A DNA stretch of 64,000 nucleotides from a bacterium (GTDB taxonomy: Bacteria; Krumholzibacteriota; Krumholzibacteriia; LZORAL124-64-63), in the NCBI GenBank assembly GCA_016712675.1, contig JADJQR010000001.1, forward strand, positions 3,351,056-3,415,055, written 5' to 3'. Both the position numbers and the translations under genes were made by a program. Position 1 is the first letter of the stretch; every line of letters starts with the position of its first letter. A model generated the notes under the pieces. The model saw only the letters and a list, made by a program, of their open reading frames with translations, was not told the origin of the DNA and did not search any database. Below are positions 1-55,065 of the stretch, in pieces.

Positions 1-852
1 TACCAGCGTCCCCTTGCGCGCCCAGTTGTGGTCGGCCAGTTCGAAGCTGAGGCCGGACGGCAGCAGCAGCCGGTTGTGGCTGCTCCCCAGGCTGGCAACG
101 CCGCCGCCCACGTTGACGCTCAGCTTGTAGGCGTGCCCCTTCTGCGTCTCGGCCCAGAACGACATGCGACGCGTGATGGCTTCCTCGATGTTCGCCGCCT
201 CGAGCAGCGGCACGCCGTGCCGAGCCGCCGCCGCCTCGATCAGGCGCCGGCCCTCGGGGCTGAGGCCGCGGCCCATGTCGTTGCCGCCGCCGTGCGTCGC
301 CGCCACGCTACGCGTCGTGAAGATCCCCGCGCGCGCCAGGACCGCTTCCATGTCCAGCCAGGTGAACTGCGGGTCGTTGGCGCCCCACATCGAGGCACCG
401 ATGGAGGTGATCACCACCGGCCGCAGCTTCATGGTCTCCATCGCCGCGTACAGGCTCACGTTCAGGGCGGGGAACGAGCCGCTGACCGCCACCGCCACCG
501 GGTCGCCCGCCTTGAGTCCCGCCTGCCGGAAGTACTGCACCAGCAGGGCGGCGAAGTTGGGGTTCACGCTGGTGAGCTTGGAGTCGAGGTCGCCGCGCGC
601 GTTCGTGATCAGGCTGAACTCGGGCCCGATCAGGCCGGTGCCTGCCGGGTCGTTGACCATGTCGACGCGCCCCTCGTGCAGGCCGCGTTCCACGCGCAGC
701 GTGGTGAACGCGCGCGCAGCCAGGCGGGACGCCTCCAGCTTCAGGTCGTAGTCGCGCTGGCGCACCGGCACGCGCGCGTACTCCAGCAGCGCCTGCATGA
801 GCAGTGCCGCCACGGCCAACCCCAGCAGGATCAGCTGCCGCCGCCTATCCAA
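1..852 (-). CDS. Third gene of the pgsB-pgsC operon: membrane-anchored protein, not CapA/PgsA-like (possibly PgsW-type); 3' end lies beyond the window start
   Basis: Hand translation of the minus strand gives a continuous frame from about 852 down to position 1 with no stop: LDRRRQLILLGLAVAALLMQALLEYARVPVRQRDYDL... ending ...PSGLSFELADHNWARKGTLV at the edge. An N-terminal hydrophobic anchor is present. Start is ambiguous (TTG at 852 or ATG at 798). It overlaps the pgsC stop by a few nt. Confidence 0.5.
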   Translation of the reverse strand, partial: MDRRRQLILLGLAVAALLMQALLEYARVPVRQRDYDLKLEASRLAARAFTTLRVERGLHEGRVDMVNDPAGTGLIGPEFSLITNARGDLDSKLTSVNPNFAALLVQYFRQAGLKAGDPVAVAVSGSFPALNVSLYAAMETMKLRPVVITSIGASMWGANDPQFTWLDMEAVLARAGIFTTRSVAATHGGGNDMGRGLSPEGRRLIEAAAARHGVPLLEAANIEEAITRRMSFWAETQKGHAYKLSVNVGGGVASLGSSHNRLLLPSGLSFELADHNWARKGTLV

Positions 853-1318
853 CCGCCAGCTCAATGAGCCTTCCTCCGTGCGCGACGATGAGCCCCAGGC
901 GCACGATGAACGACGCGACCGTCATCGTGCAGATCGTCTCGACGATTCCCTGCCTCAGCATCCAGTAGGCGATCAGCCCGGGGATGATGTAGCCGATGGC
1001 CTGCAGGACGGCGGCGTCGACACCCAGATCCGCCGAGGCATTGAACACCTTCAGGTAGCGCGTCAGGTAGCCGAACAGGTAGCCCGCCAGGACACAGAAC
1101 ACCATCGTGCGCCGCCCGTAGAGCAGGACGAAGCGCCCGATGAGCTTCACCACGCCGTAGGTGACCAGCGCCGCCAGCAGCGTGCCGATGATGCGCAGGG
1201 GCTGGTCCAGGTACAGTGCGATGTAGCCCGGCACCACGAGCCCGCCGGCCGCCAGGCCGAGGATCTCGCTGAACACGAGGCTGACCACCAGCCCCAATCC
1301 GATGCTCTGGAAGATCAC
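845..1318 (-). CDS. pgsC: Poly-gamma-glutamate synthase membrane subunit PgsC/CapC
   Basis: 157-aa polytopic protein (MIFQSIGLGLVVSLVFSEILGLAAGGLVVPGYIALYLDQP...) collinear with Bacillus CapC/PgsC; 4-nt overlap with pgsB. Confidence 0.85.
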   Translation of the reverse strand: MIFQSIGLGLVVSLVFSEILGLAAGGLVVPGYIALYLDQPLRIIGTLLAALVTYGVVKLIGRFVLLYGRRTMVFCVLAGYLFGYLTRYLKVFNASADLGVDAAVLQAIGYIIPGLIAYWMLRQGIVETICTMTVASFIVRLGLIVAHGGRLIELAVG

Positions 1319-2481
1319 GCCGCCCCGCTCCTTGCCCGCAGGTGGTCCAGCAGCGCATGGCCGATGCCCGCGATGTTGCCCACGCCCACCACCATCCCCC
1401 CGTCAGGGACGAGTTCGACCAGCCCCTGCCAGAGCGCCGGCGCGTCGAGGCGGCTCAGGTCGCTGACCGCCTCGCGCGGCAGGCCCTGACGCAGGAGCAT
1501 GTCCACGAACACGGCCGTGTCGGTGCCGATCACGACGTAGTGCGCCGCCGGCAGTTCGCGCCCGAACAACGGCGCCAGGTCCTTGCTTCGCCGCTGCCGG
1601 TCGCCGCGGTTGTTCATCAGCAGCACCACGCGCGAACAGTCGCGCTGGAGGCCGAAGCGCTCCCAGATCCGCACGTAGCTGACCGGGTCGTTCGCGGCGA
1701 ATGCGTTGACGAACTCCACGCGCCTGCCCGACTCGAGCAGCGGCCAGCGGGTCAGGGCGCCGACGTCCGGCGTCACGCCGTACATCGCCGCCAGCGCGGC
1801 CTCGCGCGCGACGCCCGCGTCCAGGCACACGGCCAAGGCCAGGGCCACGTTGTCGGCGAACTCCTCGTAGGCGAAACCGGCCATCTCGCGCTCGGTGACG
1901 TCGCCGGGGCGACACAGCTTGAACGACGTACCCCGCCCCCGCGCCACGCCCTCGAGGTAGCCCGCGTAGGCCTCCTCGGCCGTGAACAGCTTCGTCCCGC
2001 GCGGCACGGTGCCGCCCAGGCTGGCGGCCACGTCGTCGAGCGTGGGCCCCATCACCTCGAGGTGGTCCGGCCGCACGTTCGTGATGACCCCGTGTGTGGC
2101 GTGCACGATGGAATGTTCGCAGGTCCGTTGCAAGTCCGGCCTGACGGCCATGCACTCGAGCACCAGGGCGTCGCACCGCTCGGCCGCCGCCGCCCGCATC
2201 ACCGCCAGCTGCTCCCGGATGTTGGGGCCGCCGCGCCGCCGGATCCGCGTCTCGCTGCCGTCCACGTGCACGAGCGCGGCGGCGCTGCCGGTGGTCTTGG
2301 CCACCACCCGCAGCCCCCCGCCGCGCAGGCCCGCCCCGATCAACCGGGCCACCGACGACTTCCCGCGCGTACCGTTGACGTGCACGCGCACGGGAATGCG
2401 GCGACGATGGCGGCCATGGCGCCAGGTCTCCCAGGCGCCCAGGACCGTCAGCAGGCCCAGCAGCAGGGCGATCAGTTTCAT
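1315..2481 (-). CDS. pgsB: Poly-gamma-glutamate synthase PgsB/CapB (Mur-ligase-like amide ligase)
   Basis: 388 aa with N-terminal anchor and P-loop HVNGTRGKSSV typical of CapB/Mur ligases; followed directly by pgsC. Confidence 0.85.
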   Translation of the reverse strand: MKLIALLLGLLTVLGAWETWRHGRHRRRIPVRVHVNGTRGKSSVARLIGAGLRGGGLRVVAKTTGSAAALVHVDGSETRIRRRGGPNIREQLAVMRAAAAERCDALVLECMAVRPDLQRTCEHSIVHATHGVITNVRPDHLEVMGPTLDDVAASLGGTVPRGTKLFTAEEAYAGYLEGVARGRGTSFKLCRPGDVTEREMAGFAYEEFADNVALALAVCLDAGVAREAALAAMYGVTPDVGALTRWPLLESGRRVEFVNAFAANDPVSYVRIWERFGLQRDCSRVVLLMNNRGDRQRRSKDLAPLFGRELPAAHYVVIGTDTAVFVDMLLRQGLPREAVSDLSRLDAPALWQGLVELVPDGGMVVGVGNIAGIGHALLDHLRARSGAA

Positions 2482-2497
2482 CCCGGACGGCCGCCTC

Positions 2498-5400
2498 TCA
2501 GCGCACGAGCGTCAGCTTGGCGGTGACGACACCGTCCGCCGACTCCAGCCGCCCGAAGTACACGCCGCCGCCGAGGGACCGGCCGTCATTATCGCGGCCG
2601 TCCCACTGCCGGCGGCTCTCGCCGCCCGCCAGCGGCCCATCGACCAGTGTGCGCACCAGGCGACCGGCCACGTCGTACACCCGCAGGCGGGCCTGGCCGT
2701 CCCGCGGCAGGGCGAACGCCAGCTCGATGCCCCCGCGCGCGGGGTTGGCCCCGACCGCCCGCAGCGACAACCGCGCGGCAAGGCTGCCCGACAGCGCAAC
2801 CTCGCCGGGCCGGCTCTCGGACTGCCAAGGGTGGAGCGCTTTCAGGGCATAGCGCGCCGCGGCGTCGTTCGACGGCGCGGCGTCGGTGTAGGCGCGCGCC
2901 TCGGCCGGCAACGGCTCGGCCGTCAGGCGGACAACGCCGTCGGCGTCGTGGCGTTCGACGTGCCAGCCCAGGACCGGGCGCTCGTCGGCCGGGCGCCAGG
3001 TCAGGTGCACGGAACCGCCGGCCGCCTCGGCGGTGAAGGCCGCCAGGGCGAACGGCACGCGCACCGGCGGCGCGGTCGTCACGCGCACGGCCAGCCCCGA
3101 CTGCAGCGGGGCCATGCCGGCGGCGTAGTGGTTGTCGTAGGTCAGCTGGAACCCGTCGTTGCCGTCCGGCGATTCCCAGCCGGCGGTCGCGTACATCCGC
3201 AGGTTGTCGTTGTTCGAGACGTGCCGGTAGAGGAAGAGCATCTCCCCGTTGCCGTCGGGACCCGCACGCAGCGCCGGATCGTGCAGCACCAGCTGGAACG
3301 TCTGCAGCCCGAGCACCTCCGGCTGGTAGTTGGGGAGCCGGCTCCACTCGAGGATGAAGCGGCCGCCGGCCGCGTCGTGCCAGGCGTAGATGCCGTCCGG
3401 GGCCGCGCCGTTGGGCAGTTGCGCACCGGACGTCGGCGTCTCCGGGTTCAGGTTGTCCCAGAACGGCGCCACCAGCGCGTTGTTGCCGTGCGTCGAGGGC
3501 AGCGTCCAGTTGTAGAAATCGTAGCGGGTGCCCAGGTCGAACGACGCCCAGCCGTTGTCGCAGACGCGAAGCCGCGTGTAGTCCTGGCCGTAGTAGCGGA
3601 ACGTGAACGGCAGGTCCACCAGCACCGAGGTGGCCAGGTTGTCGGGCACCGAGAAGCTCAGCTTCGTGCCCGGACCGCCCAGCAGCGTGGAGATCTCGGT
3701 CCATTCGTACTGGGGCCGCGAGGCCGGGTAATCCAGGTCGGCGCTGTCGTAGGCGTAGTAGCCGTACGCGTCCGGACCACTGGGCGCGGTGACGTCCACC
3801 CGCCCCACGACGGCGGCGCAGGTGGACTCGCGCCGCCAGCCCTCTTCGGTCACGATCGTCGCGGTGAAGTTCAGCGCCGAACCGGCGGCCATCGCCGCCG
3901 GCACGGTGACCGAAAGGCCATTGCCCGTGACCACCGTCGTGCCCGGCGCGCAGGGCCCGAATGCCGCGCTGGCGCCCGCCAGCGCCGCGCCGCCGCCCCC
4001 GGTCGCGACCAGGGTGACGGTCCCGCCGGCGGTGCCGAGCGAACCGTCGTTGCGCAGCGACAGGCTCAGGGCGGTCGTCTGTCCCGGTTCGATGTAGCCG
4101 GCTGCCGCGTCCAGCGCGAACGGCTGCAACCGCGATGCCGCCACGTTGAACGACCACGCCGACACGTCGATCGCCCCGCCACGGTCGGCGGCCAGGCGCA
4201 ACGTCACCGGCGCGCCGTCATCCGCGTCGTCGGCGATCGTGACCGTCAGCGGGGTCTGCGCCTCGCCCTCGAGCCCGGCCGCGATCGCCGCGAAGGTCGC
4301 GGTTCCGGACGCCTGCGCCGGGCCGTCGACGGCGGCCGCCGTCACCGTGAAGGCGCCGCTGCCGGCGCTGCCGCGGTTGGCCATGCGCGGTGTCACGGTC
4401 AACGTCTCGCCGGGGTTGGCCACGCCTTCGGCGCCATCGCCGATGGTCGCGGACGCCGCCGCCAGGAACACGGCCGCCGTGGACGTCGGCACGCTTGTCT
4501 CCACCGGCACCACGCCGGCGCCCGACACCGTCACCTCGACGTTCGCGCCGGCGCCCACCGGCACCAGCTCGAGTCGCGCCGTGCCGAACGCGTCGGTCAG
4601 GCCGCTGCCCAGGAGCACGCCGCCCTGCGTCACGCCCACGCGCGCGCCGGCCACCGGTTCGCCGCCGCCGGCCGCCGCGACCGTCACCTCGAGGTGGTTG
4701 CTGCCGGCCGGCAGCTGGGCGGGCATGTCCGCGGTTACCGCGCGCGGCGCGCCGCGCCAGTACTCCAGCGACGGGTCGCCCAGCAGGTTGTAGATGTGGA
4801 AGTAGAACTCGACGGATTCCTCGCCATTGGTGGCGGCGTCCAGCTCGCTCGGGAAGTAGTCCAGGAACCGCAGCTTGCCCGCGTGGAGAAGGGCGCCCAG
4901 GTCGGTCACGCCGTCCTCGACGATGCGTTCGAAGACCGCGATCGCCATGGCGTCGTTGTAGCGCGTGTGGGACCAGTGCTCGCCGTTGCCGATGAACGCC
5001 ACGGCGCCCTTGCCCGCCGCCTCGGGCGTACCCTGGCGCAGGAAGGCCTCGCCGAAGCAGGGCGGACTGGAGGTGTAGTCGCCGGTCAGGCAGACGAAGC
5101 TCATGACCACCGGCAGCTTCCAGCCGTTGTTCAGCGCGGGGATGTCGTTGACGGTATAGGACGGCGGGTCCCAGCCCCCGGTACCGTAGGCCCAGCCGCG
5201 GTAGACGACCATCGAGGCGCCCTGATCGATGTTCTGCCTGATCATCTGCGCGCCCATCAGGGGGGGCAGCGGCACCGGCGAGGTGATGGCGGTCGCGGGA
5301 TCGAAGCCGATGGCCTGCAGCTGGCGGCCACAGTAGGCCACCGTGTGCGGCGGCGTCGTCGAGCCGGTCAGGCCCGCCACCATCAGCGACCTGGTGAACC

Positions 5401-6238
5401 AGGCCGGCTCGGCCGTGTACGGCGTGCGCTCATAGGCGACCGTGCGGGCCACCATCGCCTGCGCGTCGGGCAGGCTCTCGGCCGGGAACCGGCCCAGCAT
5501 CGCGTCGGGCAGGAAGTCGTCGCCGTCCAGCAGCACGTACTCCAGGTCCGAGGGATTGCCCAGGAACGTGTAGGTCGGGATGGCGCCGATGTCGCCGAAC
5601 AGGACCACGTGCTCGGGCGGGTATTCCCAGGTGTCGTAGGCCGTCTGCAGCCAGGCCTTGATGCCGGCCGTCGAGTTGCCGGTGACGTCGGTCCCGACCG
5701 TGGCCACGCGCAGGCCCTTGCGCGTCTTCCACTGCGCCAGCGGCTCGACGGCGGCGGCCAGCGCCGCGTCGTACACGATCACGTAGCTGCCGTGGCTGAA
5801 CGACGCCGTCTTGTCGGCGGGCAGGCCGGCCAGGGCCGCCTCCAGCGCCGGCGAGGCCAGGCGATGGTCGGGCTCCTCGGCCGCCCAGTTCCCATCGTGC
5901 TCCACGCGTACCTGCGCGGGACCATCGGCAGCGCCGGGCGCCGAGGCCAACAGCACCGGGCGGCCGCGCATGATCATCACGCGGCCGGGCGCGGCGGACG
6001 CCGCGCCGACGGTGCCGGATGCCACGGCCCGCGCCGTTGACGCGTCGCGCGGCAGCGCCACGAGCGTGGCGCGCCCCGCCCCTTCGACGCCGGCGGGCAC
6101 GGCCGCCAGGGTGACCAGGTCGTCGCTGCGGGCCGGACCGGTCCCGGCCGAGGACACGGAAACGGTCCCGGTTGCCGCAAGGGCGACCAGGACCGAAGCG
6201 GAGGCAAGGCGTAGCCCTTGCGGCAGGCGAGTCATCAT
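2498..6238 (-). CDS. Secreted gingipain-like cysteine peptidase (family C25) with T9SS-type C-terminal sorting domain
   Basis: 1246 aa with signal peptide; C25-like core (VVYRGWAYGTGGW, VVMSFVCLTGDY); C-terminal tail RLRVYDVAGRLVRTLVDG...WDGRDNDGRSLGGGVYFGRL...KLTLVR. Its start codon overlaps the stop of the upstream beta-helix gene. Confidence 0.75.
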   Translation of the reverse strand: MMTRLPQGLRLASASVLVALAATGTVSVSSAGTGPARSDDLVTLAAVPAGVEGAGRATLVALPRDASTARAVASGTVGAASAAPGRVMIMRGRPVLLASAPGAADGPAQVRVEHDGNWAAEEPDHRLASPALEAALAGLPADKTASFSHGSYVIVYDAALAAAVEPLAQWKTRKGLRVATVGTDVTGNSTAGIKAWLQTAYDTWEYPPEHVVLFGDIGAIPTYTFLGNPSDLEYVLLDGDDFLPDAMLGRFPAESLPDAQAMVARTVAYERTPYTAEPAWFTRSLMVAGLTGSTTPPHTVAYCGRQLQAIGFDPATAITSPVPLPPLMGAQMIRQNIDQGASMVVYRGWAYGTGGWDPPSYTVNDIPALNNGWKLPVVMSFVCLTGDYTSSPPCFGEAFLRQGTPEAAGKGAVAFIGNGEHWSHTRYNDAMAIAVFERIVEDGVTDLGALLHAGKLRFLDYFPSELDAATNGEESVEFYFHIYNLLGDPSLEYWRGAPRAVTADMPAQLPAGSNHLEVTVAAAGGGEPVAGARVGVTQGGVLLGSGLTDAFGTARLELVPVGAGANVEVTVSGAGVVPVETSVPTSTAAVFLAAASATIGDGAEGVANPGETLTVTPRMANRGSAGSGAFTVTAAAVDGPAQASGTATFAAIAAGLEGEAQTPLTVTIADDADDGAPVTLRLAADRGGAIDVSAWSFNVAASRLQPFALDAAAGYIEPGQTTALSLSLRNDGSLGTAGGTVTLVATGGGGAALAGASAAFGPCAPGTTVVTGNGLSVTVPAAMAAGSALNFTATIVTEEGWRRESTCAAVVGRVDVTAPSGPDAYGYYAYDSADLDYPASRPQYEWTEISTLLGGPGTKLSFSVPDNLATSVLVDLPFTFRYYGQDYTRLRVCDNGWASFDLGTRYDFYNWTLPSTHGNNALVAPFWDNLNPETPTSGAQLPNGAAPDGIYAWHDAAGGRFILEWSRLPNYQPEVLGLQTFQLVLHDPALRAGPDGNGEMLFLYRHVSNNDNLRMYATAGWESPDGNDGFQLTYDNHYAAGMAPLQSGLAVRVTTAPPVRVPFALAAFTAEAAGGSVHLTWRPADERPVLGWHVERHDADGVVRLTAEPLPAEARAYTDAAPSNDAAARYALKALHPWQSESRPGEVALSGSLAARLSLRAVGANPARGGIELAFALPRDGQARLRVYDVAGRLVRTLVDGPLAGGESRRQWDGRDNDGRSLGGGVYFGRLESADGVVTAKLTLVR

Positions 6239-7977
6239 CGGATCAGGCTCATCCTTCGGCTGACGAACGTCCCGTCGGTCTCGACACGGTACAGGTAGAT
6301 GCCGCTCGGCAGGGCACGGCCCTCGTCATCGAGGCCCTGCCACACGAACTCGGTGCGACCGGCCTGCGCGCGGTCCCACGTCCGGGTCAGCACGTGCGCG
6401 CCCCGCAGGTCATGGATGCGCACCGTGACCGGGCCGGCTTCGTGCAGTTCGAACCAGATCGTGGTCAGGGGATTGAACGGATTGGGCGTGTTGCCCGCGG
6501 CCAGGGCCACGACCGCCGGCAACGGCGCCGGGCTGGCGCCGCAGCCACTGGGATTGGCCCCGATCAACTGGCCGCCGCAGGGCGCTCCCGCCTGGGCGCC
6601 CGCCGCGCACGGGCTGCCCGTCGCCAGGTTGTACTCGCGCCCCGCCGTGCCGCAGAAGAGCGGGTCGGCCGAGAAGTTGCCCCCGCCGTCCACGCCGCAC
6701 AGGGCGTTGCCGCCCGCGTTGCCCCAGATGTCGGTGCACGCGACAACGGGCGTCGCCGACAGGCAATACAGGCCCTCGCCCGCGGTGGCGAAGGCGATGA
6801 TGCTGCGCTCGATGGTCGGCGCGGCCCCCCACTGCAGCGAGATGCCGCCGCCGAAGCCGTTCGCGCTGGTCGCGTTGCCGGCGATCGTGCAGTTCTCGAT
6901 GACCGGTGACGGCGTGAACGAGACGTCGATGCCGCCGCCCTCGGCAAAGAAGCCGCTGCAGGTGTTGCCGACGATGGTCACGCGACGGATCACGGGATCG
7001 CTCTGGCTGACGGCGATGCCGCCGCCCAGGCTGTAGGTACCGGCCGCGTCGTTGCCCTCGATCAGGCAGTCCTCGATGAGCCCGCCGGCCTCCTGCACGA
7101 ACGCCACGCCGCCGCCGTAGCCCAGCGTCACGTTGTCGGTGATCACGCAGTCGGTGATGGTCGGCGTGGCGCTCTGCACCGCGATGCCGCCGCCGTTGCC
7201 GAAGCTGGCGTTGATGACGTTGGCGCTGATCGTACAGCCGTCGATCACCGGCGAACACTCGGTGCGGATGAAGATCCCGGCCCCCGACGGCGCGGTGTTC
7301 TGGAGGATGCTGCAGTCCATGACCAGGGGACTGCTGCCCTCCTCGATGGCCAGCCCCCCGCCCTGCTTGGCGAGGTTGTTGTCGATCTCCAGGCGCGTCA
7401 GCGTCGGGTTCGCGTTGTTGATGCAGACGACGCCGCCGTCCTGGCAGGCCGTCACGCGGACGTCGGTCACCGCCACGGAGGCCGGCACGTTCCGCAGCAG
7501 GATGCCCGCGCCGTAAATCTGGGCGTAGGCGCCGCGCACCTGGAGGTTCTCCAGACGGCAGTTCGCCACGCCGTCGCCGAACACGCCGCGGCCGATCCCC
7601 TGCGCGTCGATGACCGTCGCGCCCGTACCGGCGCCGCGGATGGTCACGCCGGACTTGAGGATGACGCAGGCCGGCGTGGTGCCCGCGCCCTCGGTCGGGT
7701 GCGTGCAGTCGAAATAGGTGCCGGCGGCGATGCTCACAGTGTCGCCGGCGGCGGCGGCCTGCACAGCGGCGTGGATCGTCGCGTACTGGGCGGGCACCTG
7801 GCGCGTGACGGCACCGGCCGGAACGGCGGCCAGGCACACAGCCAGGCACAGGGCCGGGACGACCAGCCGGGAGCAGGCCCCGGACAGGATGGCAGGCGCC
7901 GGCGTCTTCGGCGCCGCGCCGCTGCGGGTTGCGGTATGCATCGGTGTCTTCCTTCCTGCGAGCCCGTGGGGCGACAT
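6235..7977 (-). CDS. Secreted right-handed parallel beta-helix repeat protein with T9SS-type C-terminal domain
   Basis: 580 aa with signal peptide; repeated beta-helix turns (GGGIAV, GGGVAF, GGGIDVS, ...NCTIAGN); C-terminal NPFNPLTTIWFEL...IHDLRGAHV...GIYLYRV...RMSLIR. Confidence 0.7.
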   Translation of the reverse strand: MSPHGLAGRKTPMHTATRSGAAPKTPAPAILSGACSRLVVPALCLAVCLAAVPAGAVTRQVPAQYATIHAAVQAAAAGDTVSIAAGTYFDCTHPTEGAGTTPACVILKSGVTIRGAGTGATVIDAQGIGRGVFGDGVANCRLENLQVRGAYAQIYGAGILLRNVPASVAVTDVRVTACQDGGVVCINNANPTLTRLEIDNNLAKQGGGLAIEEGSSPLVMDCSILQNTAPSGAGIFIRTECSPVIDGCTISANVINASFGNGGGIAVQSATPTITDCVITDNVTLGYGGGVAFVQEAGGLIEDCLIEGNDAAGTYSLGGGIAVSQSDPVIRRVTIVGNTCSGFFAEGGGIDVSFTPSPVIENCTIAGNATSANGFGGGISLQWGAAPTIERSIIAFATAGEGLYCLSATPVVACTDIWGNAGGNALCGVDGGGNFSADPLFCGTAGREYNLATGSPCAAGAQAGAPCGGQLIGANPSGCGASPAPLPAVVALAAGNTPNPFNPLTTIWFELHEAGPVTVRIHDLRGAHVLTRTWDRAQAGRTEFVWQGLDDEGRALPSGIYLYRVETDGTFVSRRMSLIR

Positions 7978-8076
7978 CCACCGGGCGGTGGACAGGGGGC
8001 GAACCCCGGCTTTGGATTATAGCGCATCGGGGCGGCAAGGCCACGGAGAAATTGATCGCGTCTTGGGGATAATTGC

Positions 8077-8099
8077 TCACATGACAGCCATTTATGTGA
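8077..8099. promoter_or_regulatory. Palindromic candidate operator in a divergent intergenic region
   Basis: TCACAT-N11-ATGTGA perfect inverted repeat inside the locally AT-richer 325-bp region between the divergently transcribed beta-helix/C25 operon and the large C25 peptidase gene. Confidence 0.3.
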
Positions 8100-8302
8100 C
8101 CATTGCGCGGTATTTGCTGCGGAAATGGGATAATAAAGTGAGGCTACCGAACCTCATGATCTGGTATGATCTGCGCAGCGGAATCCGAGCCGCGCCCGAC
8201 CCTGGCGCGGCTCCAGTCTGCCGGCCCCGGGATGCCCCCTGGCGGCCGGCCAGCGAGCTTGCCGTGCGGCGGCCCACGCCGCCATCGCCCTTGGAGGCTT
8301 CC

Positions 8303-16866: not shown

Positions 16867-19401
16867 CTATTTCAGCATCACCATCTTGTGCTCGGCAACT
16901 TCGCCGTCGGCCTGCAGGCGTGCCAGGTAGACACCGCTGCCGACCCGGCGGCCGCTGCCGTCCAATCCGTCCCAGACGGCGCTATGGCCGCCGGCCTCGA
17001 GGTTGCCGGCCACCAGGCGCCGAACGAGGCGTCCCTGGGCGTCGTACACGTCCAACTGGACGGGGCCGGCCTTCGCCAGCGCGAACTCGACCTTCGTCAG
17101 CGGGTTGAACGGGTTCGGATGGTTGCCCAGCGCCAGTGCGCGTCCGGGCACGTCGCCGACGCCGGCCACGTAGGACGGCAGCGCCCACAGCTCGACGTCG
17201 TCGATGTTCCAGCCGGAGTAGGTCCAACTGCCGTCGGTGGTGCCCATGGTCCAACGGATCAGCACGTTCGGCTGGCCGTCGGCCAGCGCGCTGATGTCGT
17301 AGCTGACCTGCGTCCACGCCGCGTCCGTGATCTCGCTCGCGTTCGTCCAGATGGTGGTCCAGCTGCCGCCGCCGTTGGTGCTGATCCGCACGTAGGCGTG
17401 ATCATAGGACGGTTGCTCGACGTTGAGCCAGCGCCAGAACTTCAGCACGGTGCCCTGCATGGCCGAGCAGTCGATGGCCGTGGTGGTCAGGTGCGACTCG
17501 GCCATGTTGTTCGGGTAGTCGCCGGTCAGGTTGTAGCCCAGCACGTTGCCCCCGGTGTAGCCGCTGGTCGGATCGTTCTCGCCGTAGGAGCCGCCACCGC
17601 CGGACGGCACGCCGAACGCCCAGCCGGTGCCCAGCGTCCAGCCCGGGTTGGAATCCAGCGGGAAGCTGACCGTCGCCACCGGCACGCCCACCTTCAGGCT
17701 GAGCCCGCGGATCGTGCTGCCTTGGCCGTCGGTCGTGTTCGTGATGGTCAGTGAACCGGTGTGGATCCCGTTGCCCAGCGAATTGGCTGCCGCGTTCAGG
17801 GTCACCGTGACAGAGGTCTGGGCGCCGGCCGCAAGGGTGCCGCTGCCGTTGCCGACGGTCGCCCAGGCGACATCGGCGACGGCGGTGTAATTGATGGGAT
17901 AGGCGCTGTTGTTCGTGAGCGTGTAGGACGTCCCCGTGGGCGTGAACGGCCCGCCGGGATTGCCCTCGGACGCGAACGCGGCGCCGCCCACCGACAGGCC
18001 GCTGGCCCACGGCGCGTAGGTGTCCAGGGTCACGGTGCCGCTGGCGGTCGGGTCCAGGTAGCTGGCGATGGCCGACCACGAGGTCGACAGGCGCCCGTAC
18101 CAGTCCGACGAGTTGTTGCCGCAGGCCGCGTAGCCGCCGTGCAGCTGGCCCACGACGCGGTGGTTCAGGTCGAACAGCGGCGAGCCGGACGAGCCCGGCT
18201 CCGTGGTGCCCAGATCCCAGTCGATGACGCGGATGTGGTTGCCGCCAGCCACGACGGTGTTGCCCAGGTAGGCAGTCGTGGTGGTCGCGTCGTACTCGAA
18301 GCTGATGCTCTTCTCGTCCGTATCCGGGTGGTGGATCGCCACAACGCCCCCGAAGTCCTGCGTGGACTTGTTCCAGCCGGCGAAAGAGACCTCGTGGTCG
18401 GGGTTCACCGGGTCATCCATGCGCACCAGCGTGAAGTCCGAGGTGCTGCTGGCGGCCAGGAACACCGAGCCGGTCTGGAACTCCGCCAGGCTGCCGCCGC
18501 TCTGCTGTCCGCAGACGGGGCTCTGGAAGTTCCAGTAGACCACCAGCGAGGCAGCGTTGCTCGCGCCGATGCCGCAGTGGTTGGCCGTCAGGAAGTACGG
18601 CGTGCCGTCCTCGGCCGTGTTGTTCAGCATCGAGCCGGTGCAGAAGGTGCTGCCGCCGGTCGAGATCACGCCCACGGAGTTGATCTCCAGCCGCCAGTCG
18701 TCACCCTCGGGGCAGACGACGTCGATGTTGCAGGCGCCCGCCTTGCCGGCCGCCAGGTCCTGCTGCATACGCTCGATCTGCTCGCCGAAGAACGCGTAGC
18801 CGCGGTTGATCGAGCCGATCCGCAGCTCGTAGTCGTGGCGCGATTCCCTCGGCAGCACGAGCTCGACCATGATGTCCTCGGCGACCACGACCGGGGTCCA
18901 CAGCTCGCCGTGGTCCTCGTTGTCGGCGTCGGTGAAGACGCGGACGCCGCGGACGTCGTCGTGGGCCTTGGCATCGGTCGGGTACAGCGACAGGCGCGCG
19001 CCCTTGGGCAGGCGGTAGGCCGTGAAGCCCAGGTTCAGCGAGAGCGCCCCCGGCGAGGTGACGCGCAGGCGCCACATCGTGAACCGCTCGTCCAGGTCCT
19101 CCCAGGTACCGGCCGTCTCCGGCGACAGGTCCACCAGCTGGGGCACGGCGAAGCGCGGCGGCAGGCCCGCCTCGGCGCGGCCGCCGTCCTCGGCCAGCGC
19201 GGCGGCACGGTCGACCGGCATGGCCCCGAACGCTGCCACGGCCGTGACGGACGCGACGGGGTACTCCGCGGCGACCGGGCCCTGCACGGCCAGGGGGTTG
19301 AGGTAGGTGCGCGGGGCGTCGGCGGCGACGGCGGCCGTGGCCGCCAGCAGCAGCGCCAGCGCCACCAGGGTCAGCCGGTGGTGCGTTCGAAATGAGGTCA
19401 T
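16867..19401 (-). CDS. Secreted trypsin-like serine peptidase (lysyl-endopeptidase-like) with T9SS-type C-terminal domain
   Basis: Signal peptide; catalytic-triad-like motifs (LTANHCG ... GTTEPGSSGSPLFD); C-terminal NHPNPFNPLTKVEFAL...VYDAQGRLVRRL...GVYLARL...KMVMLK; GGAGGAA RBS upstream of the ATG at 19401. Confidence 0.75.
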   Translation of the reverse strand: MTSFRTHHRLTLVALALLLAATAAVAADAPRTYLNPLAVQGPVAAEYPVASVTAVAAFGAMPVDRAAALAEDGGRAEAGLPPRFAVPQLVDLSPETAGTWEDLDERFTMWRLRVTSPGALSLNLGFTAYRLPKGARLSLYPTDAKAHDDVRGVRVFTDADNEDHGELWTPVVVAEDIMVELVLPRESRHDYELRIGSINRGYAFFGEQIERMQQDLAAGKAGACNIDVVCPEGDDWRLEINSVGVISTGGSTFCTGSMLNNTAEDGTPYFLTANHCGIGASNAASLVVYWNFQSPVCGQQSGGSLAEFQTGSVFLAASSTSDFTLVRMDDPVNPDHEVSFAGWNKSTQDFGGVVAIHHPDTDEKSISFEYDATTTTAYLGNTVVAGGNHIRVIDWDLGTTEPGSSGSPLFDLNHRVVGQLHGGYAACGNNSSDWYGRLSTSWSAIASYLDPTASGTVTLDTYAPWASGLSVGGAAFASEGNPGGPFTPTGTSYTLTNNSAYPINYTAVADVAWATVGNGSGTLAAGAQTSVTVTLNAAANSLGNGIHTGSLTITNTTDGQGSTIRGLSLKVGVPVATVSFPLDSNPGWTLGTGWAFGVPSGGGGSYGENDPTSGYTGGNVLGYNLTGDYPNNMAESHLTTTAIDCSAMQGTVLKFWRWLNVEQPSYDHAYVRISTNGGGSWTTIWTNASEITDAAWTQVSYDISALADGQPNVLIRWTMGTTDGSWTYSGWNIDDVELWALPSYVAGVGDVPGRALALGNHPNPFNPLTKVEFALAKAGPVQLDVYDAQGRLVRRLVAGNLEAGGHSAVWDGLDGSGRRVGSGVYLARLQADGEVAEHKMVMLK

Positions 19402-34785: not shown

Positions 34786-37632
34786 CTACCGGTACCCGAA
34801 CACCACCGCCCAGATGATCAGCACCACGAGTCCCAGGCCGATCGTCAGCGCCACGAACCCGAAGGTCTTGAGCGCCTTGACGAAGCCCTCGGGCAGCGGC
34901 TCGACCATGTGCTCCTCGAGCCGGCCTTCGCGCACCAGCTGCTCGTATTCGCGCGGCCGATCTTCCTTGAACTCCTCCAGCGTCATGCGGCCGGTGAAGA
35001 TCACGGGGTCCATCGGGAACCGGTCCGGACGGAAGTGCGTGTTGAAGAAGTGGATCGTGAAGATGAAGCCGGTGGCCAGCAGCGCCTCGTCCGAGTGGAT
35101 GATCTGCGCCACGTTGATGAACCAGCCCGGCAGCACCCGGGTGAACAGCTCCGGGAACCACAGGATCAGGCCGCTGAAGCCGATCATGGCGACGCCCCAG
35201 AACACCGCGAAGTAGTCGAACTTCTCCCAGTAGGTCCAGCGGCCGTACTCCGGGCGCGCACCGCGGCCGAGGAACCACTTCAGCGTGCCGATGAACTCCT
35301 GGCCGTCGCGCTGGTTGGGGAACATCCCGTCGGGCCCGAACACGAATTCGCGCCAGCTCTTGCCCGACTGCTTGCGTCGGCAGTACAGGTCATAGATATG
35401 ACGCGTGAAGTAGAAGAAGGTCAGGATGGCGCCCATACGATGCAGGGTGCCGGCGGACTGGAAGCCTCCCAGTGCCCTGGCCAGCGTCTGGGCCCACGGC
35501 AGATACGAGAACTTCAGGGTCATGCCGGTGACCGCGAGCGTCAGGAAGCTGACGATGACCATGATGTGCAGCGTGCGGTTGAGGCGATTGAAGCGTCGGA
35601 ACTGCTTCTGCCCTGCGGCCTGCTTCCTCAGCTGCCGGCTGTGCCGCAGCGCCTGGAAGCTGCGCGGCAGCCACAGCAGCGTGTGAAGGCCGAAGACGCT
35701 GAAGGTGCCCACCAGAAGTGCGGTCATGAACAACCACGTGTAGTGGATGACCGGGTACTTCGTCTTGTCATGGTGCGTGGCATGAGTCAGATAGCCGGCG
35801 AACTGCCGGTGCGCGCCCTCGTGGCACTTCGCGCACGTGCCCACGATGTTGTCGCGCGAAAGCGTCGAGGCCGGGTTGTCCGGCTTCTGGATGCTGTGCT
35901 GGCCGTGGCAATCCGAACAACTGGCCGTCTCCGTGTAGCCCAGCGCGAAGACCTTGCCGTGGTAGGTCTCGAAGTAGCTCTCGGTAACGTGTTCATGGCA
36001 CGTGCCGCACTGCGCCACGATCCGCAGCCGGAAGCCCTCGGCGTCCGTGCGCGCGATCTGGTGCGAGGTGTGGCAGTCGTTGCACATGGGCAACCGGTGC
36101 CCATCCTTCGCCTCGCCCGTGAAGTGGATGCTCTGCCGGAACTCGCGGTCGACGCCCTCGTGGCACTTCCCGCAGGTCACGTCGACCTTCGAGCGGTGCA
36201 CCGACGAGGCAGGGTCGGCGCTCGGCATGATCGCGTGCGTGGTGTGGCAGTCGACGCAGGTGGCGGTCACGACCAGGCCGCTCTTGTCCAGGGCCCGCCC
36301 GTGCGTGCTCTCCTTGTAGTTGGCCACCATGCTCTTCTCGGTGCCCTCGTAGCGCTTGTCGGCCACGCCGCCCTCGTCGTGGCACTTCCCGCACATGTCC
36401 GGGATGTTGCGCACGTGGGTCATCGACGCGGGATTCGTCCTCTTCAGGATGTCGTGCCGGCCGTGGCAGACCAGACAGTCCGGGACATCCTTGTCGCCCT
36501 GGGCGCCCAGCTTGCCGTGGATGCTGGCTTTGTAGGTCTCGACGACTTCGGCGTGGCAGATCGAGCAGTCGACCCTGTTGGGCACCGTGTCGCACGGGCG
36601 TGCGTGGCTGGGGGTGGCTCCCGTGTGGCACTGGATGCAGGCGGTCTTGACGTGCGCCGAGCCGGCCAGCATGGCGTGGTCGACGTGCATCGACCGGCCG
36701 GCGTTGGCCGGCGTCGCGCCGACGAGGTCCTTCTGGGCGTGGCACTTCAGGCACTCGCTGTCGGCCATCCCCTCGCCGTAGTACACGCGGCGGATCTCAT
36801 GCGGCTCGTGGCATTCAATGCAGGCCGGGACCTTGCTCGGTTCCTTCTCCCAGAGTTGGCCCTCGATGACCTTCGCGTGCACTTTCTCGATCATCCCGTG
36901 ACACGACTGGCACATGCCGGCGATGTTGTCGCGATGGATGCTGCTCTTGGGGTCCTTGTGGTTGCGCACGTTGTGCGCTGTGTGGCAGTCCGAGCACACG
37001 GCCGAGTTCGTCAGGCCCCGCTTGTAGAGGCCCTCGCCGTGAATCGAGAAGGAGTAGTGCGCCAGGATGCTATCCTGCGACACCTCGGCGTATTCGCGGA
37101 TGGCCTCGCCTTCCCGGTGGCAGCGCCCGCACATCACCGGGATGTTGAAGCGGTTGACCTTCGACGCGGGATCGTTCGGCGGCATGATGTCGTGCGCGCC
37201 GTGGCAGGTCCAGCAGCGCGGGGCGATGGGCACGCCCTGGCTGACTCCCACCCCGTGCAGGCTACCGGCATACTGCGCGGCCACACCGTCATGGCACGTG
37301 CCGCAGTCCACGTCCGGCAGTTCCTCCGCGTGCGGCCAGTCCTCCACGCCCGCCAGCGACTGGTGGCAGTCCACGCAGCCGATGCCCTCACGCCCGTGCA
37401 CCGAGCGGTTGTAGACCCCGAGGTCGAAGTAGAGCGACTTGACCTGACCGCGCTCGTTCTTGGTGAGGCTACGGTCGTCGTGGCACATCTGGCAGGTGTC
37501 CGCGTCCTGGGCCAGGGCGTCGGCTGCGGTCAGGGCCAGGCCCAACGACGCCATCGCTGTCGCCAGCCACAGCAGGCCGCCGCGCCGTCGGCGGTCCTGG
37601 TGGCGTGGTCCACGCGGGAAGCTCATCGGCAC
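34786..37632 (-). CDS. Multiheme c-type cytochrome (19 CxxCH) fused to a C-terminal membrane cytochrome-b-like domain (CbcL-like)
   Basis: 19 CxxCH motifs counted in the first ~600 aa (CQMCH, CVDCH, CGTCH, CWTCH, CGRCH, ... CAKCH), then about six TM helices bearing conserved His (LHTLLWL, LHIMVIV, LHRMGAIL, IHFFNTHF). Confidence 0.8.
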   Translation of the reverse strand: MPMSFPRGPRHQDRRRRGGLLWLATAMASLGLALTAADALAQDADTCQMCHDDRSLTKNERGQVKSLYFDLGVYNRSVHGREGIGCVDCHQSLAGVEDWPHAEELPDVDCGTCHDGVAAQYAGSLHGVGVSQGVPIAPRCWTCHGAHDIMPPNDPASKVNRFNIPVMCGRCHREGEAIREYAEVSQDSILAHYSFSIHGEGLYKRGLTNSAVCSDCHTAHNVRNHKDPKSSIHRDNIAGMCQSCHGMIEKVHAKVIEGQLWEKEPSKVPACIECHEPHEIRRVYYGEGMADSECLKCHAQKDLVGATPANAGRSMHVDHAMLAGSAHVKTACIQCHTGATPSHARPCDTVPNRVDCSICHAEVVETYKASIHGKLGAQGDKDVPDCLVCHGRHDILKRTNPASMTHVRNIPDMCGKCHDEGGVADKRYEGTEKSMVANYKESTHGRALDKSGLVVTATCVDCHTTHAIMPSADPASSVHRSKVDVTCGKCHEGVDREFRQSIHFTGEAKDGHRLPMCNDCHTSHQIARTDAEGFRLRIVAQCGTCHEHVTESYFETYHGKVFALGYTETASCSDCHGQHSIQKPDNPASTLSRDNIVGTCAKCHEGAHRQFAGYLTHATHHDKTKYPVIHYTWLFMTALLVGTFSVFGLHTLLWLPRSFQALRHSRQLRKQAAGQKQFRRFNRLNRTLHIMVIVSFLTLAVTGMTLKFSYLPWAQTLARALGGFQSAGTLHRMGAILTFFYFTRHIYDLYCRRKQSGKSWREFVFGPDGMFPNQRDGQEFIGTLKWFLGRGARPEYGRWTYWEKFDYFAVFWGVAMIGFSGLILWFPELFTRVLPGWFINVAQIIHSDEALLATGFIFTIHFFNTHFRPDRFPMDPVIFTGRMTLEEFKEDRPREYEQLVREGRLEEHMVEPLPEGFVKALKTFGFVALTIGLGLVVLIIWAVVFGYR

Positions 37633-39889: not shown

Positions 39890-41611
39890 TCAGCGCACGA
39901 CCGTCAGTTTCCGGGCGTGCTCCCGGCCCGCCGAGGTCACCACGGCCAGGTACGTGCCCGCCGGGGCGGGTCGGCCGTCTTCGGCGCGTCCATCCCAATG
40001 GAAGCGGTGGCGGCCGGGTCCGAGGTGCCCCCCGAAGATCCGCCGGAAGCGGCGGCCCCGCGCATCATAGACGTCCACCTCCACGGCGGCGCCTGCCGTC
40101 ATCGCGCAATCGAACCAGGTGCCGCCGTTGCACGGATTCGGCTCGATCGAAACCAGCCTGCCACGCGGAGGCAGGGGCGGACCGGGAATCGTGTCCACAT
40201 CGATCGTCCACGCGCGGGCTTCTCCGGCGCGTGCGGGGTTGCCGACGACGATCCCGACCGAAGCCAGTCGACCGGCCGGAGTGCGCAGCACGACCTGCGC
40301 GTCGTTCTCGCGGTCCAGCCCGACCGATTCGAGCGACGCGCCACCATCCACGTCACGCACATGGAGCGCCAGCGACAGGGGCCCGTCGTCCTCGTGCCCG
40401 TCGAACGTCAGCCGCAGCAGGCACTCGCCCAGGTCCTCGAAACCACCCAGTTCCACCGGTGTCGCGGCAAGATGCGCCACGGTCCCCGTGATCCGCGCCG
40501 GGTAGCTCTCGGCCCGCGCGAAAACGTCACCCGTCGGATAGTCGGCCGCGTCGGCATAGCCCATCCCCACCACGGCGCGCTTGCCGACCACGTAGTTCCA
40601 GCCGGTGAAGCCCGCCCAGGCTGCGGCCAGCGAGGCACCGCGCGGCGCCAGCACCCCATCCCACGCGGCCAGGGGATCCTCGTCCGGCATGGTAGCGCGG
40701 CGTTCCCAGTAGTCGCGTATGACCGCATCGCCCCAGCGCGCGTTCAGCCAGATCGCGAACACGGCGTCATCGTACGAGCCCGTGCCACCCGGCCCGCTGT
40801 CCAGCGGCAACTGCGGCCGGCGGACCGGGCTGTCGCCCAGCAGGTAGTGGTGGTAGGCATTGACCAGGGGAAAGGTGCGCTCCTCGGCCCAGGTGGCGTC
40901 GAGTTCCGTCCAATTGCCCTCGCTCCAGCGGCTGCCGGCGTACTGGCTGCAGTGTCTGAACTCGTGGGCCGCCGTGACCTTCGCCGAACCGATGGCGTTG
41001 CCCTCGGGATCGTCGTTCGGCGGGAAACGACTGTAGGAGTTGTGAAGCACGATACGGGAGGTTCCGGCGCCGGGGTCGACCGGCACCGTATAGCCGTAGT
41101 AGTGCATGCGGCGGAACGAGACATCGATGGGGCCGCCCGGCGGGGCGCGGAAGCCGAACTCCCCGATCGCGAGGTCCCAGGACTCCTCGAGGTACCTGGC
41201 GATGTGGGCGACGAAGTCGGGCACGCCATCCTGCGGGTCGTCGTCGGCGCTGGGCACCGCGTTGTCGCCCGTTGCGAACCAGCCCAGGCGGAAGTGGCCG
41301 CCCGGGCTGAGCAGGGTGTTCTCATCGCTGACATACGCAAGGAAGTCGTCGATCGTGCTGACGGTCCCTGGTGAGAGACCCGGACGCTGCTCGAGATACT
41401 CGCGCACCTGAGACGTGCCGCAGCCGGCGTCGTCCATCGGCCCGCCCTCGCCGGCGCCACCGTCGAACGCGGCGCGGAAGCGGTCGAGCAGCCCCTGTCC
41501 GGCATCGAGGGGCACGGCGGCACCCGCCGCCGGCGGGGCCGCCAGGACGGACGGCAACAACGCCGCCAGCAGTGCGGCAGCCAAACTCGCCCTGACTTCG
41601 AGCGGGCACAT
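39890..41611 (-). CDS. Secreted HExxH zinc metallopeptidase-like protein with T9SS-type C-terminal domain
   Basis: Signal peptide; HExxH motif (AAHEFRHC); C-terminal IEPNPCNGG...VDVYDARGRRFRRIF...GTYLAVV...KLTVVR. Confidence 0.6.
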   Translation of the reverse strand: MCPLEVRASLAAALLAALLPSVLAAPPAAGAAVPLDAGQGLLDRFRAAFDGGAGEGGPMDDAGCGTSQVREYLEQRPGLSPGTVSTIDDFLAYVSDENTLLSPGGHFRLGWFATGDNAVPSADDDPQDGVPDFVAHIARYLEESWDLAIGEFGFRAPPGGPIDVSFRRMHYYGYTVPVDPGAGTSRIVLHNSYSRFPPNDDPEGNAIGSAKVTAAHEFRHCSQYAGSRWSEGNWTELDATWAEERTFPLVNAYHHYLLGDSPVRRPQLPLDSGPGGTGSYDDAVFAIWLNARWGDAVIRDYWERRATMPDEDPLAAWDGVLAPRGASLAAAWAGFTGWNYVVGKRAVVGMGYADAADYPTGDVFARAESYPARITGTVAHLAATPVELGGFEDLGECLLRLTFDGHEDDGPLSLALHVRDVDGGASLESVGLDRENDAQVVLRTPAGRLASVGIVVGNPARAGEARAWTIDVDTIPGPPLPPRGRLVSIEPNPCNGGTWFDCAMTAGAAVEVDVYDARGRRFRRIFGGHLGPGRHRFHWDGRAEDGRPAPAGTYLAVVTSAGREHARKLTVVR

Positions 41612-48691: not shown

Positions 48692-48804
48692 TCCGGTCGC
48701 TTTAGGAACCTGTTGTCAGGAAACAGGATGGAATCGTAGAGGGCGCACCGGCAGCGGCGCCGGGAACGCTCACTGACCACCGGGAGATCAGAGGGGACCG
48801 AAGG

Positions 48805-49449: not shown

Positions 49450-49475
49450 CCCTCCGTACCCGCGGCGCACGCGCA

Positions 49476-50144: not shown

Positions 50145-50248
50145 CGTCGGCCATCCTTGGTAGGCGGTGGTTGCGGCGGTTGCGGGAACGGTCCGGCCAT
50201 GATAGCAGCAACGGGTTCGGGTTTCAAAACCCCGCGCAATTGGTTACC

Positions 50249-54735: not shown

Positions 54736-54949
54736 GACGGCCTCCTTCGTACCAGTAGCGCCCATGCGCGCTTCATCGAGCGCACTCCCGATTCGATGAT
54801 ACCATGTCGAATGGTGGTTTTCCGGACGATCCACGATTCGTCTGCTTCAGGTTCCTGCGCGACGGATCTCTGGGGTTGTGCCGTCGAGATCGTGCCCGGC
54901 CCGGGGACGGGTCGTTGAGCCTACAGTCCTGTTCTCCCTGATTCCCGCG

Positions 54950-54979
54950 TTGAACCCGGCCCCCTGCCCATGATAGAAT
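54950..54979 (+). promoter_or_regulatory. Sigma-70-like promoter candidate for the 793-aa CTD protein gene
   Basis: TTGAAC (54950-54955), 18-nt spacer, TAGAAT (54974-54979), in a locally AT-richer segment about 85 nt upstream of the ATG at 55066. Confidence 0.45.
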
Positions 54980-55065
54980 CGACGTTACCAGATAGTTCCT
55001 ACCGGGGACCTATGATTCCCGGTGGCAGGTAGCGACTCGCCCGGCCTTCGAAGGGGGATTCGCAC

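Follow-up and report, generated by a model that had tools for sequence, protein, structure and literature searches.

Poly-gamma-glutamate (PGA) is a capsule, virulence factor, biofilm polymer and industrial product. To our knowledge, Gram-positive Bacillus is the source of nearly all that is established on how it is made, exported and anchored. For diderms, we know of essentially no work on the passage of PGA over the periplasm and the outer membrane, or on its retention at the surface without CapA and CapD. The closest described systems are the operons pgsBCA(E) of Bacillus subtilis and capBCADE of Bacillus anthracis. Here a pgs locus of a bacterium of the Krumholzibacteriota was investigated. 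It is located at the left end of a stretch of 64,000 nucleotides (contig JADJQR010000001.1, positions 3,351,056 to 3,415,055), which is called the window in the following; coordinates refer to the window if no other contig is named.

As in both Bacillus operons, pgsB and pgsC are adjacent, translationally coupled and found in the same order, and accessory envelope genes are part of the same transcription unit. In contrast to these operons, the locus is without PgsA/CapA, PgsE, CapD/GGT and PgdS; its third gene belongs to TIGR04332 (PgsW type) and is combined with a domain named X in this work. Furthermore, the host is a diderm, and the locus adds a barrel protein, an LVIVD/FGE lipoprotein and an HGSNAT-like acyltransferase as well as two to three surface proteins of the type IX secretion system (T9SS) type, the beta-helix and C25-like proteins. 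An earlier interpretation of the same DNA, here called the sequence-only reading, had stated that the layout is neither pgsBCA(E) nor capBCAD. This holds, with a third gene of TIGR04332 and a conserved coupling to the beta-helix and C25-like genes.

Beta-barrels encoded together with a lipoprotein beside an inner-membrane synthase are also known from polysaccharide export (PgaA, AlgE/AlgK, BcsC, PelB/PelC). Unlike the Pga, Bcs and Pel systems, the locus contains no TPR or periplasmic scaffold domains, its barrel has an N-terminal beta-sandwich, and the proposed cargo is an anionic polyamide instead of a polysaccharide. The barrel was compared with the 14-stranded monomeric porins CymA and OmpG; sequence similarity was found neither to these nor to PgaA, AlgE/AlgK, BcsC or PelB/PelC.

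According to NCBIfam and JGI annotation, the core pgsB-pgsC-TIGR04332 is common to this locus, Zixibacteria, Planctomycetota, Spirochaetes/Leptospirales, Bacteroidota and others. The core has already been named by NCBI and JGI and is not new. Compared with these catalogued loci, the core described here forms part of a conserved cassette of larger size, and its PgsW is fused to X. Thus, the earlier proposal of a variant system for a poly-glutamate-type polymer stands for the conserved coupling to beta-helix and C25-like genes, but not for the novelty of the core. In the literature searched, no paper was found that characterizes TIGR04332/PgsW or describes the extended cassette, and neither an outer-membrane component for PGA nor a link of PGA genes to C25 or T9SS cargo was detected. 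Both CapBC and a C25 peptidase are mentioned in one paper on Cloacimonadota, but each on its own and without a link between them.

From gene content and conservation we propose, with a probability of about 0.6, that this is a conserved envelope-polymer locus of the FCB superphylum, namely a diderm PGA system with dedicated export and surface partners.

Synthase genes, predicted operon structure and conservation of the locus

PgsB (1315-2481, minus strand, 388 aa) matched the equivalog model TIGR04012 with 394.3 bits (cutoff 222.7) over positions 2-380 of 380 and contains the P-loop NGTRGKSS of the Mur-ligase type. The protein corresponds to MBK8167007.1, already named PgsB by NCBI. Its closest homologues belong to metagenome-assembled genomes of Candidatus Krumholzibacteria, and the near-invariant PgsB residues are kept throughout the clade. 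PgsC (845-1318, minus strand, 157 aa) reached 125.8 bits with TIGR04011 (cutoff 96.45) and an E value of 6e-33 with PF14102 (Caps_synth_CapC). On the basis of these family models, both proteins are shown as full-length equivalogs of PGA synthase.

The window contains only the 5' part of the third gene (1-864, minus strand, 288 codons), which matched TIGR04332 with 278.9 bits and no Pfam family. The sequence-only reading had proposed to complete the gene from the left flank and to compare it with the known families. This was possible with the Logan contig L168, which is 100% identical to positions 1-1873 of the window and extends 10.5 kb further left. The completed protein of 669 aa matched TIGR04332 over the whole model (311.4 bits, cutoff 100, positions 3-306 of 307). 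CapA/PgsA was ruled out as its identity: neither PGA_cap (PF09587) nor another Pfam family matched the completed protein, even at E <= 1. Hence the third gene is of the PgsW type and, as had been stated before, not CapA/PgsA-like.

The 669-aa protein consists of an N-terminal transmembrane helix, the alpha/beta domain of TIGR04332, further transmembrane helices and the beta-rich X domain of about 270 aa. PgsW and X are fused (about 670 aa) in the window organism and in L001, L003, L006 (11612-13633), L009, L010, L012 and L013. For many loci of other Krumholzibacteria only the PgsW part of about 375 aa matches, for example in L011 (about 10635-11740). In Bacteroidales X is a separate open reading frame (27% identity, E 9e-28), and in the Bacteroidales locus L077 PgsW and X are split into separate frames at 11231-13427. 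This pattern of fusion and splitting supports a physical interaction of PgsW and X.

The five genes of positions 1-7977 are all encoded on the minus strand. The first is the beta-helix gene (6235-7977, 580 aa), followed by the C25-like gene (2498-6238, 1246 aa), pgsB, pgsC and the third gene. As the G+C content of the window is about 70%, reading frames were chosen by GC at the third codon position; the frames of the block genes reach 0.87-0.94, compared with an overall value of about 0.70. The junctions were all determined by reading the sequence itself. An overlap in ATGA (6238-6235) joins the beta-helix gene to the C25-like gene. The stop codon TGA of the C25-like gene (2500-2498) and the ATG of pgsB at 2481 are separated by 16 nt (2482-2497, minus strand, GAGGCGGCCGTCCGGG), which contain GAGG. 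The GTG start of pgsC overlaps the pgsB stop in GTGA (1318-1315), and the third gene, starting with TTG at 864 or possibly 852, overlaps the pgsC stop (847-845). Thus, five co-directional genes with overlaps and short gaps, as described previously, were confirmed.

A transcript boundary inside the block was considered and dropped. In a scan of 1-8400 no terminator-like site was detected at any junction; the two weak matches equal the chance expectation (2.0), and neither is located at a junction. A sigma-70 promoter scan of the same region gave no consensus match, with the limit that this consensus is uninformative for a Krumholzibacteria-type lineage. Between the C25-like gene and pgsB, where a boundary would have separated a peptidase operon from the pgs genes, the 16-nt gap leaves no room, and no sign of one was seen. 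The 325 bp between the beta-helix gene and the divergent gene to its right (7978-8302, read from the sequence) are visibly richer in AT than both flanks and presumably serve both arms as promoter region. Scans of the window against Rfam and for tRNA genes gave no match, and no Rfam family was detected in 7978-8302.

Conservation was surveyed from two sides. From the pgsB side, 80 PgsB loci from GTDB genomes were searched with the proteins of the window; from the other side, alignment of C25-like domains against metagenome contigs gave 80 loci. All Krumholzibacteria-type loci with enough flanking sequence show the order beta-helix, C25-like, pgsB, pgsC, W (with or without X), barrel, LVIVD/FGE and HGSNAT. 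In these loci the C25-like gene is located directly upstream of pgsB (14/14) and the beta-helix gene upstream of the C25-like gene (10/10). PgsB identity is 54-92%, and that of the beta-helix homologues at this position 48-91%. The same order and spacing were found in dozens of independent contigs. Krumholzibacteria-type pgs loci also occur under the title 'uncultured Fibrobacteraceae bacterium' (L008, L012, L015, L017-L019, L023), an apparent taxonomic mislabel, and L025 ('Dormiibacterota') and L034 ('Acidobacteriota') hold Eisenbacteria-like loci.

Outside the clade, C25-like genes with 25-30% identity over 800-1150 aa were detected within 10 kb of pgsB in loci of Bacteroidales/Bacteroidetes (L058, L072, L076, L077, L084, L085) and Ignavibacteria/Melioribacter (L055, L081, L087), in the Eisenbacteria locus L035 and in the unclassified locus L066. 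In L035 the C25-like gene is found downstream; there and in L073, also of Eisenbacteria, the gene immediately before pgsB encodes a beta-helix homologue (27-28% identity over 458-504 aa). L077 has the order C25-like, pgsB, pgsC, pgsW, X, barrel, LVIVD, HGSNAT, with 15 nt between the first two genes. Thus, a spacer of 15-16 nt precedes pgsB in two phyla. Among the 80 PgsB loci, no C25-like gene was found in those of Zixibacteria, Planctomycetota, Spirochaetes, Flavobacteriia or Chlorobi.

In the reverse survey, pgs genes were present directly downstream of close C25-like homologues in 22 of 24 informative cases. For distant homologues (28-35% identity, at least 6.2 kb of upstream flank) pgs genes were found within 10 kb in 16 of 25, usually in the order pgsB, pgsC, W, (barrel), LVIVD, C25-like. 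By our own estimate about 0.5% would be expected by chance for a single-copy locus in a genome of about 4 Mb. A linkage that survives rearrangement across phyla argues for a functional association, i.e. for one system rather than chance neighbours. The association of pgs and C25-like genes is non-obligatory in either direction.

In Ignavibacteria, the gene directly before pgsB encodes a PGA_cap (CapA-like) protein that ends with a C-terminal domain of the T9SS type. PGA_cap proteins were found only in the Ignavibacteria loci, as T9SS cargo. That a CapA-like domain is predicted for surface export was unexpected and supports surface-acting partners. In the Ignavibacteria/Melioribacter locus L087 (6953-9958), the protein has about 1000 aa with PKD, PGA_cap (E 5e-58) and T9SS C-terminal domains, with PgsW alongside. 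Further PGA_cap-T9SS proteins were seen in L081 (about 7867-8835), L055 (about 4877-5863) and L086 (1-231).

Beta-helix and C25-like surface proteins

The beta-helix fold assigned to the first gene was borne out by PF13229 (E 4e-27, 95.2 bits, cutoff 25.9) and by NosD (E 3.6e-8; PF05048, 33.5 bits, cutoff 23.6). In a sequence search against solved structures the only match was weak, the mannuronan C5-epimerase AlgE4 (E 8e-4). The protein carries a signal peptide and a FlgD_ig/T9SS type A C-terminal domain. With the sorting-domain model TIGR04183 (cutoff 23) it reached 26.8 bits and the large C25-like paralogue described below 26.6 bits; the C25-like protein of the operon remained below the cutoff with 17.9 bits, but its C-terminus matched FlgD_ig with 32.6 bits (cutoff 27). 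Judged from sequence, both the beta-helix and the operon C25-like protein have signal-peptide-like N-termini. Within the 64-kb window none of the T9SS machinery looked for (PorK/L/M/N, SprA, PorV, PorU) was found.

The operon C25-like protein corresponds to MBK8167008.1, listed by NCBI as 'hypothetical protein IPK64_13795'; like PgsB, it is encoded on a 4.72-Mb contig of a Krumholzibacteria-type metagenome-assembled genome. Behind its signal peptide follow the C25-like domain (about 150-500), the C25 C-terminal Ig domain, a middle region with Ig/CARDB-like and NIDO-like domains and the FlgD_ig-type C-terminus. The model PF01364 (Peptidase_C25) matched residues 152-492 with E 6.5e-55 over positions 1-373 of 374, and the gingipain RgpB (1cvr) was aligned over residues 150-521 with E 3.4e-22. 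With the gingipains RgpB and Kgp and with PorU (C25, clan CD), the protein shares the fold of the catalytic domain, the nucleophilic Cys and the C25 C-terminal Ig domain, and its C-terminus is a putative sorting domain of the T9SS type; the gingipain-type propeptide is kept in the large paralogue and in Bacteroidales homologues.

In contrast to the gingipains, the equivalents of His211, Glu152 and Asp163 are gone. C244 of RgpB aligns with Cys383 (MSFVCLTGD), which is invariant across about 150 homologues. Opposite the catalytic H211 of the motif Y-T-G-H stands Trp349 of Y-R-G-W, the counterpart of E152 is Thr, and D163 lacks a conserved equivalent. The approximately 150 C25-like open reading frames of all fetched loci have W, Y, E, Q, G, F or L at the His position, and His itself occurs in none; Glu or Gln replace it in homologues of other phyla. 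The Arg of Y-R-G (Arg347 in the operon protein), a motif which takes the place of gingipain Y-T-G-H, is invariant in all of them. A further motif, W-S-H-T-R-Y-N, contains a near-invariant His and aligns with the pocket lid at RgpB 284-288; in many pgs-linked homologues this His is Ser (T-S-T-K-Y-N). The long middle region with CARDB-like and NIDO-like domains and the linkage of the gene to pgs also distinguish the protein from gingipains.

Hence the earlier designation as a surface cysteine peptidase is correct for the C25 fold and the Cys, but not justified for the peptidase, as the catalytic His and the equivalents of Glu152 and Asp163 are missing. By alignment, the C25-like proteins belong to the C25 fold family and keep only the Cys of the catalytic dyad, so that the label 'cysteine peptidase' is unjustified and canonical peptidase activity appears doubtful. 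For the same reason, processing of a surface polymer by ordinary cysteine-peptidase chemistry, as considered in the sequence-only reading, is not supported. In RgpB, Thr209 lines the S1 pocket and Asp163 binds the substrate Arg. The Arg of Y-R-G aligns with Thr209; an invariant Arg at this position together with the loss of Asp163 would suit a carboxylate ligand, e.g. glutamyl units.

Flanking genes and further features of the window

The five genes of 1-7977 were found as described, but the block is not limited to them and the system continues on both sides. Positions 1-7977 are the front, promoter-proximal half of a nine-gene block of about 14 kb, which is conserved in several phyla of uncultured bacteria. 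About 6 kb further left also belong to it and encode the X domain, the outer-membrane barrel, the LVIVD/FGE lipoprotein and the HGSNAT-like acyltransferase. On its right side the system comprises a divergent second C25-like paralogue and a conserved lipoprotein.

On the left side, L168 encodes a fourth gene product of 401 aa at the barrel position (P0337, no family), an LVIVD protein with FGE-sulfatase domain (811 aa) and an HGSNAT_cat membrane acyltransferase (364 aa). The spacings are overlaps of 20 and 4 nt, followed by gaps of 28 and 23 nt. For the barrel, an AlphaFold2 model was made on the L006 homologue P0241, P0337 being the window organism's own copy. The model has a pLDDT of 90.1, long antiparallel strands over residues 178-504, a beta-sandwich N-terminal of the barrel and the C-terminus YRF. 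Thus the fourth gene is shown, at the level of this structure prediction, to encode a 14-stranded outer-membrane beta-barrel. The LVIVD/FGE protein contains the lipobox LLAAC|G, with GldK/PorK as the closest match to its FGE domain (E 1.6e-17). After HGSNAT, on the same strand, follow a Peptidase_S9/Dpp5-like serine peptidase (L168 7887-9842, 651 aa, 83-nt gap) and an NAD-binding dehydrogenase (9874-10752). Both are probably outside the cassette, since their position is not conserved in L003 or L006.

On the right side, the large paralogue (8303-13423, plus strand, 1706 aa), divergent from the minus-strand block, consists of Propeptide_C25, the C25-like domain, CarboxypepD_reg, Big_7 and a T9SS C-terminal domain. 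It has Tyr439 at the His position, keeps the Cys as Cys467 and shows 32% identity to the operon C25-like protein over 974 aa. Its divergent position is kept in Krumholzibacteria-type loci (41-54% identity over about 1500-1735 aa). The small lipoprotein gene (13442-14212, plus strand, 256 aa, lipobox LLLGGC, no Pfam match) begins 18 nt past the paralogue. In 14 Krumholzibacteria-type loci a homologue with 31-48% identity is found at this place, and in L077 of Bacteroidales the last gene of the pgs cassette (17021-17914) encodes a weak homologue (E 4.6e-6).

The open reading frames of the window that end with a C-terminal domain of the FlgD_ig or Por_Secre_tail type are 2498-6238, 6235-7977, 8303-13423, 16867-19401, 39890-41611, 53866-54834, 55066-57447 and 57722-61297. 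Of these, 16867-19401 encodes a trypsin-like protein with BACON and MAM domains and 57722-61297 a Laminin_G/alpha-beta-hydrolase protein, each with the C-terminal sorting-type domain. Three such cargo genes are located in 54001-62000, where the G+C content falls to 0.635-0.67 compared with about 0.70 elsewhere. The most GC-rich 2-kb stretch of the window is 50001-52000 (0.749); it overlaps an 838-aa frame (48788-51304, minus strand) without Pfam match, for which the gene call by third-position GC is ambiguous. On the same strand, a 948-aa frame (34786-37632) combines multihaem cytochrome c7/c3 and paired-CXXCH motifs with a cytochrome b561-like membrane domain and could be an extracellular or periplasmic electron-transfer fusion. 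Furthermore, a protein with MshEN and DUF4388 (45397-47532, minus strand, 711 aa) adjoins a T2SSE/PilT-like ATPase (47534-48619, minus strand, 361 aa); the pair may act as a cyclic di-GMP-responsive regulator of a type IV pilus-like ATPase.

Proposed mechanism, rival explanations and significance

In the proposed diderm PGA system, PgsB and PgsC would polymerise glutamate at the inner membrane, and PgsW and X would substitute for PgsA on the periplasmic side. The barrel, probably together with the LVIVD/FGE lipoprotein, would provide the passage of the polymer across the outer membrane. A T9SS-type route would bring the beta-helix and C25-like proteins, presumably co-expressed, to the cell surface, where they may bind, retain or trim the polymer. 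As the C25-like protein has kept the Cys and lost the canonical His, a binding or anchoring module or a non-canonical enzyme is more likely than an ordinary endopeptidase. PgsBC with a PgsW-type partner, an outer-membrane channel and exported surface proteins looks like an undescribed route to make and display PGA in diderms.

A bolder version is put forward only tentatively and is in our opinion rather doubtful. It describes a trans-envelope machine which bacteria of the FCB superphylum would dedicate to PGA and in which PgsBC would make the polymer and PgsW-X, the 14-stranded barrel and the LVIVD/FGE lipoprotein would export it. The T9SS-delivered C25-like protein without His would then be a new clan-CD type for an acidic polyamide, either an analogue of CapD that would link PGA covalently to the outer surface by means of Cys383 or a glutamyl-specific lectin derived from a dead protease, and the beta-helix protein a depolymerase or length regulator.

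Several findings weigh against the diderm PGA system. Eight open reading frames in 64 kb end with a FlgD_ig or Por_Secre_tail-type domain; with such cargo dense in the genome, chance adjacency becomes more probable and adjacency in a single genome means little. Many pgsBC-W loci (Zixibacteria, Planctomycetota, Spirochaetes, Flavobacteriia, most Eisenbacteria) are without the beta-helix and C25-like genes, so these proteins would be accessory and not essential. Conversely, pgs genes are absent in 9 of the 25 informative distant C25-like loci, and L139 and L161, with full flanks and without pgs genes, show that the C25-like family is not exclusively linked to pgs. The role of PgsW is a guess, as no informative structural relative was found, plain PGA offers no obvious substrate to the HGSNAT-like acyltransferase, and the loss of the His makes any enzymatic role of the C25-like proteins uncertain. 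All functional assignments are inferred from homology and gene neighbourhood.

Part of these findings would also be explained if the beta-helix and C25-like proteins were ordinary cargo of the T9SS, for example adhesins or proteases for nutrition, which share a promoter or neighbourhood with pgs and have no tie to the polymer. The eight cargo genes of the window fit this explanation, as do the pgsBC-W loci beyond three or four lineages, most of which are without beta-helix and C25-like genes, and the C25-like homologues without pgs neighbour. However, the linkage holds down to 54% PgsB identity and recurs in Bacteroidales, Ignavibacteria and Eisenbacteria with the gene upstream or downstream; an arrangement that is changed and nevertheless retained is a signature of selection for linkage. 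The frequency of 16/25 in the reverse search, compared with an expectation of about 0.5%, and the spacer of 15-16 nt before pgsB in two phyla also disagree with mere neighbourhood, and we regard ordinary cargo as quite unlikely. Another explanation concerns the product, which might not be free PGA but a modified form, e.g. a short, N-acetylated gamma-glutamyl chain on a glycan, lipid or protein, with the surface proteins as carriers or targets. The conserved HGSNAT-like acyltransferase, for which plain PGA offers only the N-terminal amine, would be accounted for; PgsW, X, the LVIVD/FGE lipoprotein and the barrel are all uncharacterised, and the literature searches gave no experimental study of this locus type. 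Since PgsB and PgsC are full-length equivalogs well above the cutoffs and the near-invariant PgsB residues are kept across the clade, the known reaction is the simplest reading, and a modified product seems very improbable.

The C25-like protein itself could be an active polymer-processing enzyme, i.e. a depolymerase or a CapD/PorU-like transpeptidase that would cleave PGA and couple it covalently to an acceptor on the outer surface, with Cys383, a non-canonical base and an S1 pocket remodelled for carboxylate. PorU, a related C25 protein, is a transpeptidase. Cys and the Arg of Y-R-G are invariant in all of the about 150 homologues, this Arg is placed at Thr209 of the S1 pocket of RgpB while Asp163 is lost, and the propeptide on Bacteroidales homologues and on the large paralogue is zymogen-like. 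The near-invariant His of W-S-H-T-R-Y-N at the pocket lid would be available as an alternative. On the other hand, many pgs-linked homologues have Ser instead of exactly this His. At the position of His211, Trp, Tyr, Glu, Gln, Gly, Phe or Leu occur without a consistent substitute, and Glu152 is not conserved. Therefore, an active enzyme is considered unlikely, and for the C25-like protein of the diderm PGA system we keep the wording binding or anchoring module or non-canonical enzyme.

For the biology of PGA, the locus provides a concrete conserved parts list for export and display in diderms: PgsW-X, a CymA/OmpG-like barrel, an LVIVD/FGE lipoprotein, an HGSNAT-like acyltransferase and the T9SS-type beta-helix and C25-like proteins. 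As the cassette is also found in Bacteroidales and Ignavibacteria, it is testable heterologously or in culturable relatives; Melioribacter roseus, for example, has C25-like, PGA_cap-T9SS, pgsB, pgsC and pgsW genes. Furthermore, a large subfamily of the gingipain fold was defined by the Y-R-G motif, the retained Cys, the lost His and a specific genomic association. This is relevant to the annotation of environmental 'C25 peptidases', which are labelled as proteases; for the Y-R-G subfamily, the genes with which it is associated suggest a role that is non-proteolytic or non-canonical.

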